A stretch of DNA of 64,000 nt, from contig CM102283.1 in assembly GCA_046563655.1 (NCBI GenBank), positions 9,238,001-9,302,000 of the forward strand. The letters are read 5' to 3'. Below the pieces are notes generated by a model. It did not search any database. It was not told the DNA's origin and saw nothing but the letters and a program-made list of their open reading frames with translations. The position numbers and the translations under genes are program-made. This DNA is from Yuukianura sp. NJ FZ-2021. Taxonomy: Eukaryota. Positions 25,724 through 42,165 of this stretch are shown one piece after another (positions within the stretch are counted from its first letter, which is position 1; each line of letters opens with the position of its first letter).

Positions 25724-27576
25724 ATGATTTTCTTGTTACAACTCTTGTTATGGGGAATCGGAAGTCTAATACTTCTGTTAGTCGCTGCTGCTGCAGCGAT
25801 TATAGTCTACGCTCGATGGTATCGCGGTACTTTAGAGAAAACTGGAGTTCCAGTAGTGGAACCCCATTGGTTTCTTGGAAGTAACTTCGACGCTCATAAT
25901 AGAGTTCAAGCCTTCGTAGATCTGGAACGAATGCACAAATATGGACACGTTTATGGGGTAACTTGACACACATCGTAATCTAATTGCATCCTTCAACATC
26001 AAGCATCTCGTGACTTTCTTTTCATTTCACTTTCTTTTAGGTATATGATGGCCGACAACCAACAATTTTCGTTTCGGATCCTAAACTGATGAAGATGATC
26101 CAAGCAACTGATTTTGAGTATTTTCGAAACCACCGCAGAATCCTAGTCGAACATCCTGTTGTGTCAGAGATTCTAGACTTCATTGACGGTAATTTTTAAA
26201 CACAAATGCAAAACTTACAAGATCCGAAGGTCGATGTCTTCGTAAATCTTTTCAGATGATAAGTGGAGAGAAGTCCGATCGCACTTGACACCTCAGTTTA
26301 CAACTGGAAGAATCAAAGTAATGTGTGAGACAATTTCCGAAATTACTCTGGATTACGTAAGGGAACTGAAAAAAGACATGGATGACAATGGTCTAAAATC
26401 TATCAAAATGGACTTTCCACAGTAAGTAAACTAATCACAACAACGAAATAGCCCTAAGCGAAACTGAAATTCACTTTTGTTGCACTCTAGACACTGTTCT
26501 CCGTTAGTTCTGGAGATTATTGGTAAAATCTTTTGCGGAATCAATATCGAAAATGCAAGAGACCCCAACAACATTTTCGTTAAGAACATGAAACGATGTT
26601 TAGGCGGTGAGGATGAGAAAGGTCTTGAGATGCCCTGGACCTTCACTTTGGCAAGTAAGTGACTAACTAATTGACTTCAATTAAACCAAAATTAATTCCA
26701 TACTACTACCTAAATGTTTATCACTTATGTAATGTTTACTCACCTAAAGCCGCTGTGCCGATACTTGCCAAGTTGTTTCCAGTACTTCCTCCTGGTGCAA
26801 TCGAGATGTTCTCCCAAGACGTAACAGGAATCCTGGAAGGAAGAGACAAATCAGGCATACAACATCAGGATATGGTTAACACTCTACTACAAATGACCAA
26901 GAAGGCTAAAAGTGATCCTAACTACAAAAGACTAGGAATAACAAGTGACACCGCAATGGGCCAAGCATTTGAATTCTTCTTAGCCAGTTATATGGCCGTG
27001 AGAACCAGTCTGAATTGTCTCTTCTACTATTTCGCAATTTACCCGGAAATACAGGAAAGAGTGAGAGCGGAAATGGCGGACGTCATGAGGAAACAAGGAA
27101 ATCAAACAATCAATTACGAAACTGTGTCTGAAATGCCGTTCCTCAATGCATGTCTCATGGAAACAATGCGACTCCAACCCTCATTGTTCTTTAGACCAGA
27201 TCGACGATGTACTAAAGACTGGGAACACAATGGACTCAAAATCAAGAAGGACATGATCGTCATCTTTCCTCTGTATGCAATTCATCGTGACCCCAACTCT
27301 TACACTGACCCAGAGACGTTCGATCCTGATAGGTTTATGCCCGGAAGAAAGGAGAAGCTTGACCCGTATACGTTCGGTACGTTTGGTAATGGTCCGAGAG
27401 CCTGCATTGGACAAAGATTCAGTATGCAAATGCTTAAGATTATTGCGGTCCATTACATGCAGAGCTTCGCTTTTCAGAAGAGGGAAGACACGGAACTAAA
27501 GTATCTTAAAGGAAATCCCTTTTTCATAAAGATGGGCCCAATTTACGTTGACTTTGTTAAACTGTCCTCCAAATAA
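25724..27576 (+). CDS. Microsomal cytochrome P450, CYP3 clan-like
   Basis: Exons 25724-25957, 26041-26188, 26256-26421, 26491-26654 and 26750-27576. N-terminal TM anchor, WREVRSHLTPQFTTGRIK (helix C), ETMR (ExxR), PDRF, and heme motif FGNGPRACIG. Confidence 0.95.
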
Positions 27577-28498: not shown

Positions 28499-31689
<3,191 letters not shown>

Positions 31690-31944: not shown

Positions 31945-32028
31945 GGCTCAGTGGTCTAGTGGTATGATTCACGCTTCGGGTCTTCTCGAGTATGTGTGAG
32001 GCCACGGGTTCGATTCCCGTCTGAGCCC
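31945..32028 (+). tRNA. tRNA-Pro(CGG) with a 12-nt intron (31981-31992)
   Basis: GGCTCAG/CTGAGCC acceptor stem, TGGTCTAGTGG A-box, CACGC-TT-CGG-G[TCTTCTCGAGTA]T-GTGTG anticodon arm, GGTTCGATTCC B-box, and downstream T-runs. Confidence 0.93.
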
Positions 32029-32528: not shown

Positions 32529-32612
32529 GGGCTCAGACGGGAATCGAACCCGTGGCCTCACACAAACTTGAGAACACCCAAAGCGTGAATCATACCACTA
32601 GACCACTGAGCC
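32529..32612 (-). tRNA. tRNA-Pro(TGG) with a 12-nt intron (32576-32565)
   Basis: The reverse complement is identical to the + strand tRNA except for anticodon position 34 and the intron (TGTTCTCAAGTT). A T-run terminator follows. Confidence 0.93.
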
Positions 32613-33398: not shown

Positions 33399-34830
33399 CT
33401 ACATTGACTTGAGAAAGTCATTGAAATGTTGAACACTACTTTTGGCCACCATAACAGCAAAGTGAGCATCTTCTCCCGCCACAATGTCTTCCACTGAAAC
33501 GAAATTTGGCTTTTCTGGATTAAATTGAGCTCGGCCAAGATGCTGGAGGTAGCCAATCCGACTTCTCAAGCGTCCTTCACGAGTCAACAGCAACTTTGGA
33601 GATCGAGCAATTGTTTCGTGAGAAAACTTTACAATGTTGTGGACGTAATCAAATCTTCGCCAAAGCGTGTCGGCCCCTACAACACAAATAGTCATAGAAG
33701 TTCAAACTAATTTGCTAATTCAAACTAATTGATGAAAAATTCAAAGTAAATTACTTTGTCGCCAAATGGAAGGATGTGCGAGAAGAATTGATATGATCTC
33801 GTTTGGCTCGAATCCCATTTCATCTTTAATCTTAAACGTAACATCCATCAGTTGAGCACGTTTCGTCGTAATCGTTCGTGCACCCTTTGTAGCCAATTGT
33901 CGTATTTGGTTTCCAGTTAACTTGAAAGTTGTTTGAAAGTATCCCAGACACTTGTCAATTTCAGCAGTACTGGAATCAAAAACAACAGTATTCATCAAAC
34001 ACACCAGTGGAAATGGAAAAGTTTGCTTTCAAGATGTTACCTCATGGATAACCAAAAGACTTCGCTGGTAATGATGCTCGTGATTTGGTCATTGCTGAAG
34101 GCTTTAGATTTCAAGTACTGGATACGAATATTCAAATTTCTCAAGTCCTCAAGCAGTATCTTTGGATTCTTGGTGAAGAAAACTTTAAGTCCGTCCGGTG
34201 GAACGCCATTGTCAGTCAGAAATCTAACACAAAACAGCTGATGTTTACACATTCTGGAATTCGATTTTCAAAAAAACAGATAATTTTCTAGCATTTGAAA
34301 AACGTTTACCTGACGTAAGGTGCCACGTCCTTGTCGAAATCCAAACGAAGTATTTTTTCTACAACTTCCAAGTCCAATTTGTCCCATTTGTACAGTTCCA
34401 CTCCCATTTTGAGAAACGTTTGCAACAACACGGAATCGTTTACAAAGGATGCAATATTCGAGGAAGGACGGAATGCTGGTCCCACATTCCAAATGAACCT
34501 CTGCTGCTCCAGTTCACTTTCTTTGTCATCGTCAACATTCTTCACCAAACAGTTATCATCCAATTCCGAAATCTCATGTGTTCCAGTATCTGGATTCTTA
34601 TAAATCGCTACATTGGAGTATCGGCAAGCATCCGGAGCTATAAGACTAACAGCTGATAGTGGTGGAACTGAAGATACTTTGAGCTTTTCCAGAATACTTG
34701 CTCCAGAAATACTCCGGTGAGGTTGAACACAGTGTGATGATAGGGCACAGCTGATTGACTTTCGACTTACACTTTGAGTAAGTTTCAACATTCTCGTAAA
34801 TTTTGAAAGTTGGCGACTATAAGTCAACAT
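33399..34830 (-). CDS. MTERF3: Mitochondrial transcription termination factor 3 (mTERF3)
   Basis: Exons 34830-34310, 34223-34041, 33969-33755 and 33676-33399. Basic, Ser-rich presequence MLTYSRQLSKFTRMLKL with the ATG in a CCACCATG context. Motifs: NIASFVNDSVLLQTFLKMGVEL, ILRLDFDKDVAPYVRFL, RIQYLKSKAF, EMGF, RFDYVHN, LGRAQFNPEKPNFVS, FNDFLKSM. Confidence 0.92.
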
Positions 34831-35941
34831 GGTGGAGAACTCGAGCAAACTTTTCATGAAGGTCAAGAAAGATATGAGGATTGTCTGACAGGAGCGGAAG
34901 CGACCGAGCACCGGCAGCACTACTGCGAGTAAATGCCTTTGGACATCCACTTAGCGGAGTACTTGCATGGTGACCATCACCATCCAGAAGGGAAGCTAAT
35001 CGTTGACTTCTTTGGGGTGACACGGACTGTTCCTTGTTATAGACTTTTTCACATTCGTGGAGTAGCGTTTTACTAATATTGTAGAATTCCTCTGTGATGT
35101 AATCGTAGAACGGGACGAGGGAAGGATAAGGATTGGCCGTTGACTTTCTATCACCGTCTGAGTAGTGTGATTGCGAATCTTCCTTGGATAGACTCTTTTG
35201 AGGTAATCGTTTCTTATCTTTCAATGGTTGTTGAGGTTGACCTACTCCGAGGTCACGTGAAGCCGTACTCTTCGATGCTGCTTCAATAGCTGTTCGTCGT
35301 AGACACTGTTCATGTGTTTCTGGAAGGAATGTAAAGATTAGACAGTATTTCCGATGAAATCCACGAGCTTGTGAATCCTTCAGCGAAAAAGCTGTTCCGA
35401 TGGCCCAGATTTCAGAAGACGTAAACGCTACGGAATTGACTGGACTAATTTCACACGATAATGTCCGAGCTACACATGTATGAAGATGAGACAGATGAGA
35501 GTGGTCGTAGTTACTGTGGGAACAGTAGTACTTGGTAGTTGTTCCAGGAGTAGTTGAAGTACAAGGGTCAGAAATTGTTGCAGAAGGGGATGATTCGTGC
35601 TTGAAGTGACGATCGTCGAGATGGGATGGACCGATTTTAGAGTGTTTGAATCTGTGAAGTGAAGTGGAGGTTGAATGTTTTGGAACAAGACCGCACGGAC
35701 CTACATCGACTGAATTGGAAGACGATGTAGAGCTGGGTGATGGCGTTTGAGTAGGAGTTGTGTGAACTGTTTGAACAGTGGAAATATACCCTTCCAGTAG
35801 TGGGGCTTTACAGCCTGAGCAAAATTTCAAGTCAGGACATTGGGACACGAATTGTGGTTCATTGATGTTTCGGATGGTGTAGAAGACGAGGCGGGGACCA
35901 TGAACTTCACAGAAGTGACCGAGTGCTACGACCGTGGACAT
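34817..35941 (-). CDS. FLCN: Folliculin (BHD/Lst7-like), N-terminal longin domain only, intronless, 374 aa
   Basis: MSTVVALGHFCEVHGPRLVFYT, CSGC, CVARTLSCE, FSLKDSQARGFHRKYCL, KVYNKEQ..PQRSQRL and ARSLPLLSDNPHIFLDLHEKFARVL match folliculin N-terminal blocks in order. There is a 5'UTR intron at 36075-36004. Confidence 0.9.
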   Translation of the reverse strand: MSTVVALGHFCEVHGPRLVFYTIRNINEPQFVSQCPDLKFCSGCKAPLLEGYISTVQTVHTTPTQTPSPSSTSSSNSVDVGPCGLVPKHSTSTSLHRFKHSKIGPSHLDDRHFKHESSPSATISDPCTSTTPGTTTKYYCSHSNYDHSHLSHLHTCVARTLSCEISPVNSVAFTSSEIWAIGTAFSLKDSQARGFHRKYCLIFTFLPETHEQCLRRTAIEAASKSTASRDLGVGQPQQPLKDKKRLPQKSLSKEDSQSHYSDGDRKSTANPYPSLVPFYDYITEEFYNISKTLLHECEKVYNKEQSVSPQRSQRLASLLDGDGHHASTPLSGCPKAFTRSSAAGARSLPLLSDNPHIFLDLHEKFARVLHHVDL

Positions 35942-37800
35942 AAAAGCTCCAGCTCTAAAGTCAAGTTTCTTGGAGCTCTATTCCAAGCACTTGACACGAT
36001 ACTCTAAAAAACGACAATTACTATGATTAATCACAAATTGCTTACACTTTCTACAATAAATCATTCGAACCTCACCTTGTGTTAAAAGTGTTACATCGTC
36101 AAAAGGACTCGGGCAAAATTTCTGGTCCGTGCCATTTGTCCGAATATCTGAAAATTCAAATAAACAAGATCAGTTGTATCTAAAACGTTTAGGTTCCTAA
36201 GCTAAAGTCACTGTGTACTATTCCAAATCTGCGAAATGCTTAGAAATTTCGACAGCGTTCTACCCAACAAGAATCGCTGACACTTCAGAGAACACCGAAG
36301 ACATGATTCTGAACTGACAATCCCCGCGACACTACACCCAAAAAAAGATGTTTGATTTGATTGAGATCCGGATCAGAGAATGTCCTCCTGTGACATCCTT
36401 CTTTCGTCTAATGTCGTCTGTCGTGTTAGCTTTGTCCAAAATACATTATTCACTCCTTGACATTTCTGTCGCCAATCCTTCCTACTACTTTCGGAAACAT
36501 AAAAGCATTTGAGAGTCGAGTAAGAGAACGACTTGACTTGAAAAAACGAATGGAGATGGAAAACTCTGGCAGAGATTCTTACCAAAAAACCGAAAGCGGG
36601 TAGTAGGAAAGCCCTTCCAGAAGATCCAGCGAAACGTGAACAAGATGATGAAGGTAAGGGATGGATTGGATAGAGAGCTTATCCATCCACAGTAAAATCC
36701 AATTTTCTCTTTTTCAGAGTCCACAGGACTTCGTTTTCAAATTTTTAGGTGCTTGCTGGAGATCTTCAGCAGAACAAGAGTTAAAGGACTCAGCAGCTCT
36801 AGCGCTAGCGCAGTACAAGCGAAGATCCAAGGATCAGTTTGACGAGCTGACAAAGAAAGACTAAAAGGAATTGGCAAGTATTTGGGCACTTTCGTATCTC
36901 ATTCGCAAAGTCTTCGATCTTTTTTTCGCTTATCAATCTTGTGAGTGACTTTGAGTGGAAAAGAGAGAGGAGTGTTTTCTTCGGAGATTGTGAAAAAAGT
37001 AGGTCACAACTTTTGAACTTCGCGGTTAGAATGAAATGAGCAGTCAAAGAATAAAATGTCATCGTTTCTAATTCACACAGCAATTCTATTAGTAAAACTC
37101 ACATTAAATACGTTTTGAAAACGTAGTCGTGTGTTCAGATTTTAATTAAGTAAATCCTAAGTAATTCACAATTGAAAAGGATTCCAACTATTGCATGTTC
37201 GGATATCGCGAATTTGAGGGAGCGGAGCTGAAGAAGACGCGGGAAATTCCTGTTTGAATTTTGCAAACTTTTAGTTTTTTTGAATGGATGAATGGAATGT
37301 TTTTGCCGTGTTTACTTTTAAGTTACTTTCATGATTTCATAATTAATTAGTTTTAGTAGTTAATTAATTAATAGTTAGCTATTTACCTCGTTTTCTTATA
37401 CTGATTAATTTGAGCACGATCATCATCATCTCATCTCTTCTTTCTTATTGATCCAACAAACTATACTCTAATGGTAAATCACGTAATATCGACTTCGTTT
37501 ACCAGTAGTTGCAAATGTCGGTTGATTTCGATTGATTGATTTCCAGGTAAAAAGACACTACAAATTGGATTTTTGCCACACTCCAAGATGTACAGAATTT
37601 AAATGAAGGAAGGTATCGCACGCGGAACACTTTGATTGACTCCGACTGCTAAGCACCAGCACTTCGGTACAGAAATTGACGGACGTTTGGGGGTCGCTGG
37701 TGGGTGGGTATGTGAACGATTACATCACTGCTTAACGCAGATTTTATAAGTAGAGCTGGGGTCAATACTAACCTATTTAAACTACTTTTTAGCCATAGGA

Positions 37801-38603: not shown

Positions 38604-38662
38604 GTACGCTTAAACGTTCACTAATCCTTACATTAACAGTGACTTTGCGCTAAAACGCCAAA

Positions 38663-41600
38663 ATGCCTTCACCCGAAACCGAACCCAAGTTGGACAAGGG
38701 CACCGAAAAGCCAAAACGAAGTAAAGTTTTTACTGAAACGTTCAACTCCATTTCAAGACATCTATCTAAAAAATCCAAATCCAAGGCCAAACTACAGAAA
38801 GCCAAGTCTATGCAAGCTATCAACAATGGTCACACCTTAGAAGTTCCAGGATCATCTTGGGTTGGAAGCGACTCAGACTTTGAGTACCAACGACACACCA
38901 ACGTTTCTTACAAATCGGAAGAAAACGTTAAATCTTCGATTGACAGCAGCAGTGACTCCCACTCTCTGTATGCAAGTACTACACTTCCAAGATCTGCTGA
39001 CAGAAGAGTTGTCACCAGGACTAGAACGAGGTCAGAAACGTCTTATGATGATTTCGAAGATCAAGTTCCAGAAAGATGTCAAACACCAAAAATGTCCAAA
39101 AAGAAAAGTCCAATGCCTTCTCCAGCTCCAAGTCGTCGTGAAATCGAAACCAGTCCAATCGCTTCACCACGAACAAGTATTCGGTCCGAAGTTAGTCCAG
39201 TATCGTCGCTGCCACCGTTTCGTCATGCCGAAGTGGAGGCAGTCAGCCTGCACACACAAACAACTGCTCGTAAAAAATCTATGCTATGGGTAGATTTTCT
39301 AACTGAGCCTGGAATTAATGTGCTGGAGGAAGATTATGACGACATTCCAGAAACGGATGAGGAAGATCACCATTCAAATGCAAGTGAACACGACCATGAT
39401 GAAGAATTGCATGACGAATTGAAACCAATTGTCAATGGTGGACAAGAAATGGGACGACAAAAGAACAGAATCAAAGAAGATTCAACCGAAAACGGCAAAC
39501 CGGATATTTTTACAGGAGAATTTGATGTTAACGGAAAACCGAAATTCGTGAAACGTGAAAATACCGGGGGATTCGACTGTCCGCGGAGTAACTTTTTCCG
39601 GAAAAATCGGAGAGATTCGCTTGCCATCTCTCTTAGATCGGTTGTGTCCAACCGCAGTAGTAGAAGTCCAATGCTTCTATCGTGAGTTTCAAGCGATGCT
39701 TGAACTAAAGCGCTTAAGCGTTACGGTTGGTTAAATTTTCAAAAGCGCTGATTTTATATATTTGTATCTTTTCAGCGACGTGTCACGCGTACATCGAAAT
39801 GTGGACGATCTTATATTTGACATGTTCCGGGAGAAGGACGAGGAGGTCGCTATTGTCGGAACGTTTCTATCCGTGAGACAAATTTTGAAGTTTAAAAATT
39901 TGGAAAATAGTTTATATTACTTTACGAATTTTTTTTTCAAAAGGCCTTGGCGAAAACTGGATTACGAAAAGACGATCCAAGGCTGGCCGAGCTATTTGAA
40001 AACTTACGTCGAGTTCACAAGGAGCAAGAAGCAAGTTTTCCTGGAAGAGTTGGATCTATTGAAACGCTGCGCTTGGACAGAGAAACTTTCAAGGTCATCG
40101 TCACTGATAACATTGTGCTCATTTCAAAAGCATTTCGACAACAGTTTATTATTCCCGAATTTCAAACGTTTTGTGGTCACTTGGAAGAGATGTACTGGAG
40201 GTGTCGGGATGTCAAAGGCGGAAAAGTTGCAGCCTACATACCCCAATTGGTAAGTGTTACCAAAAATTTAGTACGTTTTAAATTTTTAAAACTCACTTTA
40301 ACTTTAAAATTATCGCAATTTGTGCAGGCTCGTGTGGATCCAAATCTTTGGGGCGTGTCGATTTGCACAATTGATGGTCAGCGGTTTTCAATTGGCGATA
40401 CGTCAATCCCATTTACAATTCAATCATGCAGGTAAAGTTTAACCAGTTTAGCTCAGAAGTGATAAAATTAACACTCCATTTTAGTCTAATTAGTATAATT
40501 TAAATGCTAATTTTGTGAATTTTAGTAAACCACTGACGTATGCCATTGCTTTAAACGAATTGGGGCAAGATACTGTCCATCAATACGTTGGCCAGGAGCC
40601 TTCTGGAAGAATGTTTAATGAATTGGTTCTGGACTATAACAGTAAGTTTAAAGACTCGGGAATTCCCAATGTCATGGACAAAGTAATTGGCACGTGGGGG
40701 GCGTGGCCTAATGGTACTTGGAATAAATCTCATGTCTATTTTTATAGAGAAGCCACATAATCCTATGGTGAATGCTGGAGCAATTATTGTTTGTTCCCTG
40801 CTTAAGTCAATGGTTCGACCGGAGATGAGTTTAGCTGAGAAGTTTGACTACACACATAATTACTTCAAGGTAAAGGAAATTAATTTTTGAAAAAAAAATG
40901 GAACTGCTTCACATGACTTTTTTGAATTTTAGAAAATTTGTGGAGGGGAGTATGTGGGATTCAACAATGCTGTGTTTTTATCCGAAAGAGAAGCGGCTGA
41001 CAGGAACTATGCTCTGGGTTTCTACATGCGAGAGAACAAATGTTTTCCGGAAGGAACGAATCTCCAAGAATGCATGGACTACTATTTTCAAGTAATTAGA
41101 TTAACTAATTACTTTAATTAACACTCTATAACTAATTGTAGCCTAGTAAGTTAATTGATTGATGATTAATTTAGATTTGCAGTATGGAATGCAACTGTGA
41201 AGGCATGTCTGTGATGGCTGCCACTTTGGCCAACGGTGGAATCTGTCCTGTCAGTGGAGAGAAAGTTCTCAAGTCTGAGTCTGTGCGAGATGTCCTGTCA
41301 CTCATGCACTCATGTGGTATGCTACTAAAATTAATACAATTTAACTATGTTATTATAATTATTATTATACATTTATATAAAATTAACATTGTAAATTGCT
41401 TTCTATGTAAGGAATGTACGACTACTCCGGACAATTTGCATTCAAAGTCGGTTTGCCCGCCAAATCAGGAGTTTCTGGAGCCATTATGCTAGTTGTACCA
41501 AACGTTTTTGGAATGGCCGTTTGGAGTCCATCGTTGGACGTTCTGGGAAACTCTGTTCGCGGAGTCTCCTTTTGCCAAGTATGTACTAAAAATTGGAAAA

Positions 41601-42165
41601 TATTTGTGCCTAGCAGCGCTAATTTCAAACATTCTGTGATAGGAACTTGTATCGACGTTCAATTTTCACAAGTACGACAATCTACGACATGCTTCGGATA
41701 AACTGGACCCACGTCGACATCGCTATGAAACCAAAGGATTGAACATTGTGAATCTCCTGTTCTCAGCTGCCTCTGGTGATGTAACGTCCATGAGGAGACA
41801 TCACCTCTCTGGCATGGACATGAACGCTTCCGATTATGACGGAAGGTAAGAAAAACGTTTTTCGAAAATTCTTTTCAAAAACATAACTCATTTCTTGTCA
41901 TATTCAGAACGGCACTTCACTTGGCTGCTGCCGAAGGGCACCTTGAATGTGTCCAGTACTTACTTCGTCACTGTCACGTGAGCCACTCACCACTTGATCG
42001 GTAAGTATTATCACGAGTCTTAGTACTTATTTCAAAGATTCCCGCCATTTCAAAACTGACTTTTTAAACAGTTGGAGTCATTTACCGCTGGATGATGCTC
42101 AAAAGTTTGGGCATGAAGATGTTGCTGAGTTTCTGAGAAAGTGGGCTGAGGAGCATCCAGACTGA
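38663..42165 (+). CDS. GLS: Glutaminase, kidney-type-like, with C-terminal ankyrin repeats
   Basis: Exon 38663-39681, then about 11 exons from 39776 to the TGA at 42165. Motifs: [19 protein letters not shown] (catalytic SxxK), [58 protein letters not shown]. Confidence 0.96.

Follow-up and report, generated by a model that had tools for sequence, protein, structure and literature searches.

The closest described counterparts of the locus reported here are nuclear genes that specify two proteins on one mRNA. The upstream open reading frames (ORFs) of the Drosophila genes stoned and Snapin are reported to be poor in internal AUGs, with translation of their second ORF depending on leaky scanning (PMC11291117); in-frame AUGs in the first cistron attenuate the second (PMC11291117, PMC4528330, PMC3372440). 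Green-algal bicistronic genes in Chlamydomonas and Auxenochlorella have a weak Kozak-like sequence at ORF1 and are depleted in start codons ahead of ORF2 (PMC11291117, PMC7896298), and strengthening the start context of ORF1, or restoring an AUG within it, lowers ORF2 output (PMC11291117). FlyBase contains 159 dicistronic pairs, and 18 gene pairs share coding sequence in different frames, mostly over less than 40 nt; 26 of the 36 genes in those 18 pairs lie on polycistronic transcripts (PMC4528330). Here we describe a pair of overlapping genes, folliculin and MTERF3, on the minus strand of a 64-kb stretch of DNA (the window) from the springtail Yuukianura sp. NJ FZ-2021 (contig CM102283.1).

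Judging by its sequence, the springtail pair fits this known kind, the gene pair and the length of the scanned ORF being what differs. Like stoned (stnA/stnB) and Snapin, it is a hexapod nuclear locus for two unrelated proteins, probably on a single mRNA, whose first cistron has an off-consensus start and no in-frame AUGs and whose second cistron would be reached by scanning; unlike them, its ORFs overlap by 14 nt. Coding nucleotides common to two genes in different frames also occur in the ‘multiphase’ dicistronic pairs of FlyBase (PMC4528330), and stop and start codons overlap at some green-algal bicistronic loci as well (PMC11291117). The algal genes belong to another lineage, and their ORF1 has a median length of 291-357 nt (PMC11291117), against 1.1-1.3 kb in springtails. 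Whereas the multiphase pairs are backed by cDNA and RNA-seq (PMC4528330), the pair in Collembola is described here from DNA sequence. The reading that best accommodates this sequence is a dicistronic mRNA from which MTERF3 would be translated by leaky scanning, to which we assign a probability of roughly 0.55.

The folliculin-MTERF3 overlap

The folliculin ORF is uninterrupted in a single exon, with its ATG at 35941-35939 and its stop codon at 34819-34817 (374 aa; 386 aa from stop to stop, 34817..35977). It begins MSTVVALGHFCEVHGP and ends ...CAC CAT GTT GAC TTA TAG. The MTERF3 ATG (34830-34828) is formed by CAT-G in the +1 frame relative to folliculin, 14 nt before the folliculin ORF ends, so that the same letters are read as CAT GTT GAC TTA TAG in the folliculin frame and as ATG TTG ACT TAT AG in the MTERF3 frame, with no gap left between the two genes. 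The MTERF3 ORF begins MLTYSRQLSKFTRMLKL, extends to a GT donor at 34309 and is open upstream to 34950 (ORF 34306..34950). Splicing out three GT-AG introns (86, 71 and 78 nt) gives a coding sequence (CDS) of 398 aa that is free of internal stops. An initial annotation of this DNA had described the folliculin 3' end with its stop codon, the out-of-frame embedded ATG, the frame open to 34950 with an in-frame ATG at 34857, an AG before 34884 and a GT..AG interval at 36075-36004; all of these were confirmed at the same coordinates. The 62 nt between the acceptor of this putative 5' untranslated region (5'UTR) intron and the folliculin ATG hold no ATG, and the close relative L001 has a GT..AG interval similarly positioned upstream of its folliculin ATG. 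Upstream of the donor at 36076 (about 36104-36090, minus strand) lies a 14-codon upstream ORF (ATG GCA ... ATG TAA), should the 5'UTR exon reach that far.

Scanning with a folliculin alignment yielded five related metagenome contigs (L001-L005), the last of which ends before the folliculin 3' end; in what follows, five loci are the window and L001-L004, and four relatives are L001-L004. All four relatives, that is, all that reach the folliculin 3' end, have the same stop/start overlap, CAY CAT GTN GAC YTN TAR, and in them the MTERF3 ORF opens at the embedded ATG as M-[WLS]-T-[YF]-[SN]. Across the five loci, CAT is the only codon used for the second His, while that for the first His varies. The five loci form three sequence groups that are 62-66% identical in folliculin. 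All four MTERF3 exons are present in L001, L002 and L004, where the short introns between them indicate that the contigs are genomic DNA; L003 ends inside exon 1. Because L002, L003 and L004 have no nearby downstream in-frame ATG for MTERF3, the embedded ATG is the sole conserved MTERF3 start. An assembly join, a possibility raised in the initial annotation, was rejected on the identical junction in four independent contigs, and a chance overlap was rejected on the same arrangement in 4/4 relatives. The overlap is real and conserved among springtails.

The folliculin C-terminus encoded across the overlap is also shared widely. Among 16 springtail-type database proteins (P0001-P0016), 14 end in HHVDL and the other two are fragments that stop elsewhere; all ten aligned relatives end in LHHVDL. 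The HHVDL codons carry synonymous changes (GTT/GTG/GTC and TTA/CTA/CTT), which points to selection for the folliculin peptide, the N-terminus of MTERF3 being carried along passively.

Start contexts, ATG counts and possible routes to MTERF3

Start-codon context depends mainly on a purine at -3, and in Drosophila the consensus is rich in A. In all five loci, T occupies both -3 and +4 of the folliculin ATG (gcttttATGt, gattttATGt, ccttttATGt, gtttatATGt and acctatATGt), which is weak by general consensus rules. By contrast, the MTERF3 ATG has A at -3 in 5/5 loci. The initial annotation had called the latter context strong; with A at -3 and T at +4 in the window (tccaccATGt), it is better described as adequate.

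Downstream of its start codon, folliculin is devoid of Met: none of the 1953 residues in the five loci is an internal Met (L001 after removal of a 99-nt intron). P0001-P0016 have five Met in 5578 residues past position 1, one being the genuine start in a model extended at its 5' end, whereas other folliculin-like proteins (P0017-P0060) have 1.64% Met and MTERF3 of the window has seven internal Met in 398 aa. Counting all frames between the two start codons, we found 12, 4, 5, 6 and 1 ATGs in the window and L001-L004, respectively, where shuffling of synonymous codons led us to expect about 11, 7, 10, 11 and 11 (P=0.75, 0.06, 0.0045, 0.009 and <0.0005). Pooled over the five loci, 28 ATGs were observed against 50.9 +/- 4.5 expected, and 0 of 2000 shuffles gave a count as low. 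In the same order, the observed/expected ratios were 0.85, 0.30, 0.32, 0.30 and 0.05 for folliculin, compared with 1.01, 1.17, 1.58, 1.30 and 0.69 for MTERF3 exon 1. The springtail ranges (0.05-0.85 and 0.69-1.58) can be set beside the algal values of ~0.43-0.49 upstream of ORF2 and ~1.0-1.2 in ORF2 (PMC11291117). L004 has just one ATG over 1273 nt, at -27 and in frame with MTERF3. The last ATG ahead of the MTERF3 start sits in the MTERF3 frame in 5/5 loci, at -27 in four and at -45 in L002. The ORFs opened by out-of-frame ATGs span 1-27 codons across all loci and stop 92 nt or more upstream of the MTERF3 ATG; the window has 11 such ATGs, with ORFs of 1-24 codons. With its weak start, its lack of internal Met and its scarcity of ATGs in relatives, the folliculin ORF looks like one that ribosomes pass through.

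On the leaky-scanning reading, one mRNA starting upstream of folliculin would carry a longin-only folliculin ORF followed by the MTERF3 ORF. Some scanning 40S subunits would initiate at the folliculin AUG, which falls in the weakest context class; the remainder would pass it, scan ~1.1-1.3 kb of an ORF devoid of in-frame AUGs and, in most species, poor in AUGs of every frame, and then initiate at the MTERF3 AUG with its A at -3. In the window species, the 11 out-of-frame AUGs mean that scanning would also have to resume after the mini-ORFs that they open; alternatively, this species may have gained an MTERF3 start site of its own. The polyadenylation signals AATAAA and ATTAAA were absent from the 333 nt past the folliculin stop in every locus. 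Stop-codon readthrough was rejected, as the frame past the folliculin stop closes at once in L001 (at a second stop), after two codons in L004 and after 12 in L003. A frameshift fusion of folliculin and MTERF3 was rejected as well: in L003 and L004 the MTERF3 frame stays open for only 11 codons ahead of its ATG, and variation at synonymous sites leaves no conserved slippery site. Among publications that mention both spliced leaders and Collembola, none treats trans-splicing of operons, judging by titles.

Several points weigh against leaky scanning. We infer both the single mRNA and the route of translation from anatomy and sequence bias. The window species is the worst fit: its ATGs are not depleted (12 observed, 11.2 expected, P=0.75), and its upstream ATGs include one in a strong context (34977) and three in an adequate context. 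Depletion in L001 is marginal when taken alone (4 versus 7.3, P=0.06). Because the five loci are related, their counts are not independent and the pooled statistics overstate independence. The weak rating of the folliculin context is by consensus rules and not by the start-codon frequencies of this genome, and the His codon dictates the A at -3 of the MTERF3 ATG, which therefore carries no independent weight. In every locus there are ATGs among the 200 nt upstream of the folliculin ATG, ORF1 is much longer than its algal counterparts, and leaky scanning by itself gives no explanation for the invariant folliculin C-terminus HHVDL.

Three other routes to MTERF3 were weighed. The two genes might form separate overlapping mRNAs, with MTERF3 transcribed from a start inside the folliculin CDS and the folliculin mRNA running into MTERF3 before polyadenylation; the overlap would then persist since both protein ends are constrained. 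We regard this as unlikely, although many Drosophila dicistronic loci also give monocistronic transcripts, 45 of the 159 pairs being apparently exclusively dicistronic (PMC4528330), and the 11 out-of-frame ATGs in the window would do no harm to an MTERF3 mRNA with a short leader of its own, and the last ~92 nt ahead of the MTERF3 ATG are free of out-of-frame ATGs in every locus. What separate mRNAs leave unexplained are the Met-free folliculin and its weak start in 5/5 loci and the ORF-wide ATG depletion in L002-L004. Nor does an island of synonymous conservation mark a core promoter: 19 of 182 conserved degenerate folliculin codons are identical in all five loci, and they are spread evenly with no cluster. 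The promoter inside the CDS that the initial annotation had offered is weakened by the same observations and is retained as a rival.

Termination-coupled reinitiation, in which ribosomes that finish folliculin at 34817 would travel 14 nt back and initiate anew at the MTERF3 AUG, has the geometry of the overlap in its favour: the MTERF3 start lies within 14 nt of the stop at invariant spacing in 5/5 loci, HHVDL is invariant in the 14/14 relatives that reach the folliculin end, and out-of-frame start/stop overlaps are typical of the mechanism (PMC10275272). The springtail pair resembles systems based on a ribosome-binding site upstream of termination (TURBS), such as caliciviruses and influenza B M1/BM2, in having a long ORF1 whose stop adjoins or overlaps an out-of-frame ORF2 start (PMC10275272). 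However, where reinitiation after a long ORF is known, from viruses, it relies on a structured element upstream whose conserved sequence pairs with 18S rRNA (PMC10275272), and no conserved upstream sequence or structure was found in the springtail pair. Synonymous sites and third codon positions vary freely through the last 35 folliculin codons, and RNAalifold on -105..+20 gave -6.64 kcal/mol with an unfavourable covariation term of +0.92, so no structure is supported. A TURBS-type element next to the overlap was thus found neither by codon variation nor by consensus fold, 18S rRNA complementarity lying outside this comparison. Reinitiation would also favour a strong ORF1 start rather than a weak one and gives no reason for a Met-free ORF1; TURBS systems need neither a weak start nor an AUG-poor ORF1. 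On balance, this route, another of those offered in the initial annotation, seems improbable.

Least probable is the choice between two 3' acceptors: a 5'UTR exon joined to 36003 would make the folliculin mRNA, and the same exon joined to an acceptor within the folliculin CDS would make an MTERF3 mRNA that is monocistronic. The window has a plausible 5'UTR donor at 36076/36075 and an AG at 34886-34885 that would set an exon start at 34884, yet this AG, to which the initial annotation had pointed, is absent from 4/4 relatives. Another AG (34924-34923), within the AGT codon of Ser340 (34924-34922, minus strand) and 94 nt before the MTERF3 ATG, is invariant in 5/5 loci and is preceded by TTY ACN CGN/AGA in the five-locus alignment, but it belongs to one of the 19 invariant codons among 182, has a poor pyrimidine tract and may mean nothing. 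Splicing would moreover leave the ORF-wide AUG loss and the weak folliculin start unexplained. Leaky scanning, which was not among the mechanisms originally proposed, therefore fits best in our assessment. The proposal of a single transcription unit for both proteins is partly supported, by indirect signs: the overlap in 5/5 loci, the missing intergenic space, the lack of a promoter-like island and the marks of scan-through, while the mechanisms suggested for it fared less well.

The two proteins and their surroundings

The first ORF matches the Pfam family Folliculin (PF11704; E=3.7e-19, 69.6 bits against a cut-off of 23.3) and no other Pfam domain. A profile built from it and nine relatives matches human folliculin 6ulg_L (E=3.5e-13). 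The N-terminal HFCExHGP motif is present, residues 1-22 align to a 22-residue human segment, and profile residues 133-228 align to human 76-175. The catalytic arginine finger of folliculin is human Arg164, in the longin domain (PMC8107286); human ARGFQR aligns to QARGFHR, and the arginine-finger equivalent, R193, is invariant in 10/10 aligned sequences. The two named relatives of this ORF come from Allacma fusca (60%) and Orchesella dallaii (55%), both springtails.

The ORF ends six residues past a helix that aligns weakly with human residues 235-262, at the end of the longin half. Folliculin_C (DENN, PF16692) had no Pfam match in the folliculin ORF, and 13/13 database relatives checked carry PF11704 only. 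We ran tblastn on the 64-kb window and L001-L005 with seven other folliculins, all with PF16692 by Pfam (five with the whole domain, two cut off within it). These searches recovered the longin ORF alone and gave no DENN match at E<1, although a DENN region split into small exons, or encoded at another place in the genome, could escape them. A DENN exon downstream of MTERF3 was rejected for the DNA covered: none was found between MTERF3 and window position 1, nor in the following 10 kb of L002. The identification as folliculin in the initial annotation thus holds for the longin domain, the whole C-terminal DENN half being missing from the ORF. Yeast Lst7 keeps only the N-terminal (u-DENN/longin) part of folliculin (PMC3438538). 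Because the ORF ends with the longin half and no DENN match was found, sequence comparison identifies the folliculin at this springtail locus as a longin half only and Lst7-like; unlike Lst7, it is an animal protein, 358-429 aa in length, and carries long low-complexity inserts. AlphaFold2 on the ten-sequence folliculin alignment gave a mean predicted local distance difference test score of 37.7 and a predicted template modelling score of 0.26, too poor for a fold search. A scan of genome contigs with the folliculin alignment gave 31 pattern matches and zero relatives.

Three further observations concern folliculin. By Pfam, the non-springtail folliculin-like proteins P0021, P0031 and P0043 (347-489 aa) have the N-terminal domain alone; P0031 and P0043 end 13-30 residues past the same helix, suggesting that longin-only folliculins recur beyond springtails. 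L001, whose folliculin is 86% identical to that of the window, has the 99-nt GT-AG intron in its folliculin CDS (L001:1366-1464), corresponding to a site near 35290 in the window. This intron holds two stops and two ATGs and is absent from the window, so it was gained or lost between near relatives. Gene callers break the L001 folliculin gene into two proteins (P0004 and P0014).

As the initial annotation had it, the second ORF is MTERF3. Its four exons are colinear with human MTERF3 (3m66_A), with E=0.79, 2.6e-07, 0.22 and 1.8e-18 for exons 1-4, and exon 4 scored E=1.8e-18 against MTERF3 versus 1.3e-03 against MTERF4. On this sequence evidence, we identify it as an MTERF3 orthologue. Word-based searches with exon 1 or the last exon found no MTERF3 relatives. 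The first 30 residues of the window protein have 0 acidic residues, 6 K+R and 9 S+T, and those of the five loci 0 acidic, 2-6 K+R and 7-9 S+T, a composition count rather than a targeting prediction; in composition, the N-terminus looks like a mitochondrial presequence.

Table. Features of the folliculin-MTERF3 locus, in window coordinates
Feature	Position	Strand	Remarks
Putative 5'UTR intron	36004..36075	-	72 nt, gtgagg...ttttag; from sequence only
Folliculin start codon, gcttttATGt	35938..35947	-	T at -3 and T at +4 in 5/5 loci
Folliculin CDS, 374 aa + stop, longin half only	34817..35941	-	PF11704; no internal Met
Upstream ATG in MTERF3 frame (-27), weak context	34855..34857	-	would add 9 residues to MTERF3 if used
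Overlap from MTERF3 ATG to folliculin stop, 14 nt	34817..34830	-	same spacing in 5/5 loci
MTERF3 exon 1	34310..34830	-	3m66_A residues 2-42; presequence-like N-terminus
MTERF3 exon 2	34041..34223	-	Pfam mTERF, E=5.8e-06; 3m66_A residues 47-104
MTERF3 exon 3	33755..33969	-	3m66_A residues 110-173; conserved in L001, L002 and L004
MTERF3 exon 4, stop 33401-33399	33399..33676	-	3m66_A residues 183-269

On the far side of MTERF3 lie genes for tRNA-Ser(GCT) (31945-32028, plus strand) and tRNA-Gln(TTG) (32529-32612, minus strand), between the end of MTERF3 and a convergent MCM-family helicase gene (28829-31401, plus strand) with MCM P-loop and lid domains; a cytochrome P450 gene is at 26041-27576 (plus strand). 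On the folliculin side, a gene for a glutaminase with an EF-hand_14 domain (39735-41701, plus strand) is divergent from folliculin, with ~2.7 kb between them that holds no obvious gene. A serine-rich ORF of 343 aa (38654-39685, plus strand) has no Pfam match.

Meaning of the paired gene

We found no publication that links folliculin and MTERF3, co-mentions apparently being list entries, and none that pairs ‘folliculin’ with ‘Collembola’; the search extended to texts other than supplementary tables. For annotation, the locus warns that gene finders will either call two overlapping genes here or overlook one of them. A longin-only folliculin in an animal and, in relatives, a very long first cistron free of AUGs raise the interest of the locus somewhat. 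In this animal lineage, folliculin at the locus appears to consist of the longin half with the catalytic arginine kept, as in yeast Lst7, which bears on the role of the DENN half. If a single mRNA is confirmed, springtails would provide a case outside Drosophila of an old dicistronic gene, shared across the lineage, whose scanned-through first ORF is unusually long, and L004, with one ATG in 1273 nt, would offer a clean natural test of the reach of leaky scanning in animals.

A stronger reading, which we hold only tentatively and think rather unlikely, is that springtails carry an obligate two-protein gene. It may have arisen by a deletion that removed the folliculin linker and DENN half, the terminator and the MTERF3 promoter, and MTERF3, an essential mitochondrial factor, would since then depend entirely on ribosomes that bypass the folliculin AUG and go on to scan over 1 kb of Met-free ORF. 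If so, this would be the first animal folliculin working without a DENN domain, and the ratio of a longin-only, RagC/D-GTPase-activating-protein-like folliculin to MTERF3 would be set inversely by start-codon stringency. Conditions that alter initiation fidelity would then move nutrient signalling one way and mitochondrial gene expression the other. A functional coupling of nutrient sensing to mitochondrial gene expression, as the initial annotation envisaged, is speculation.

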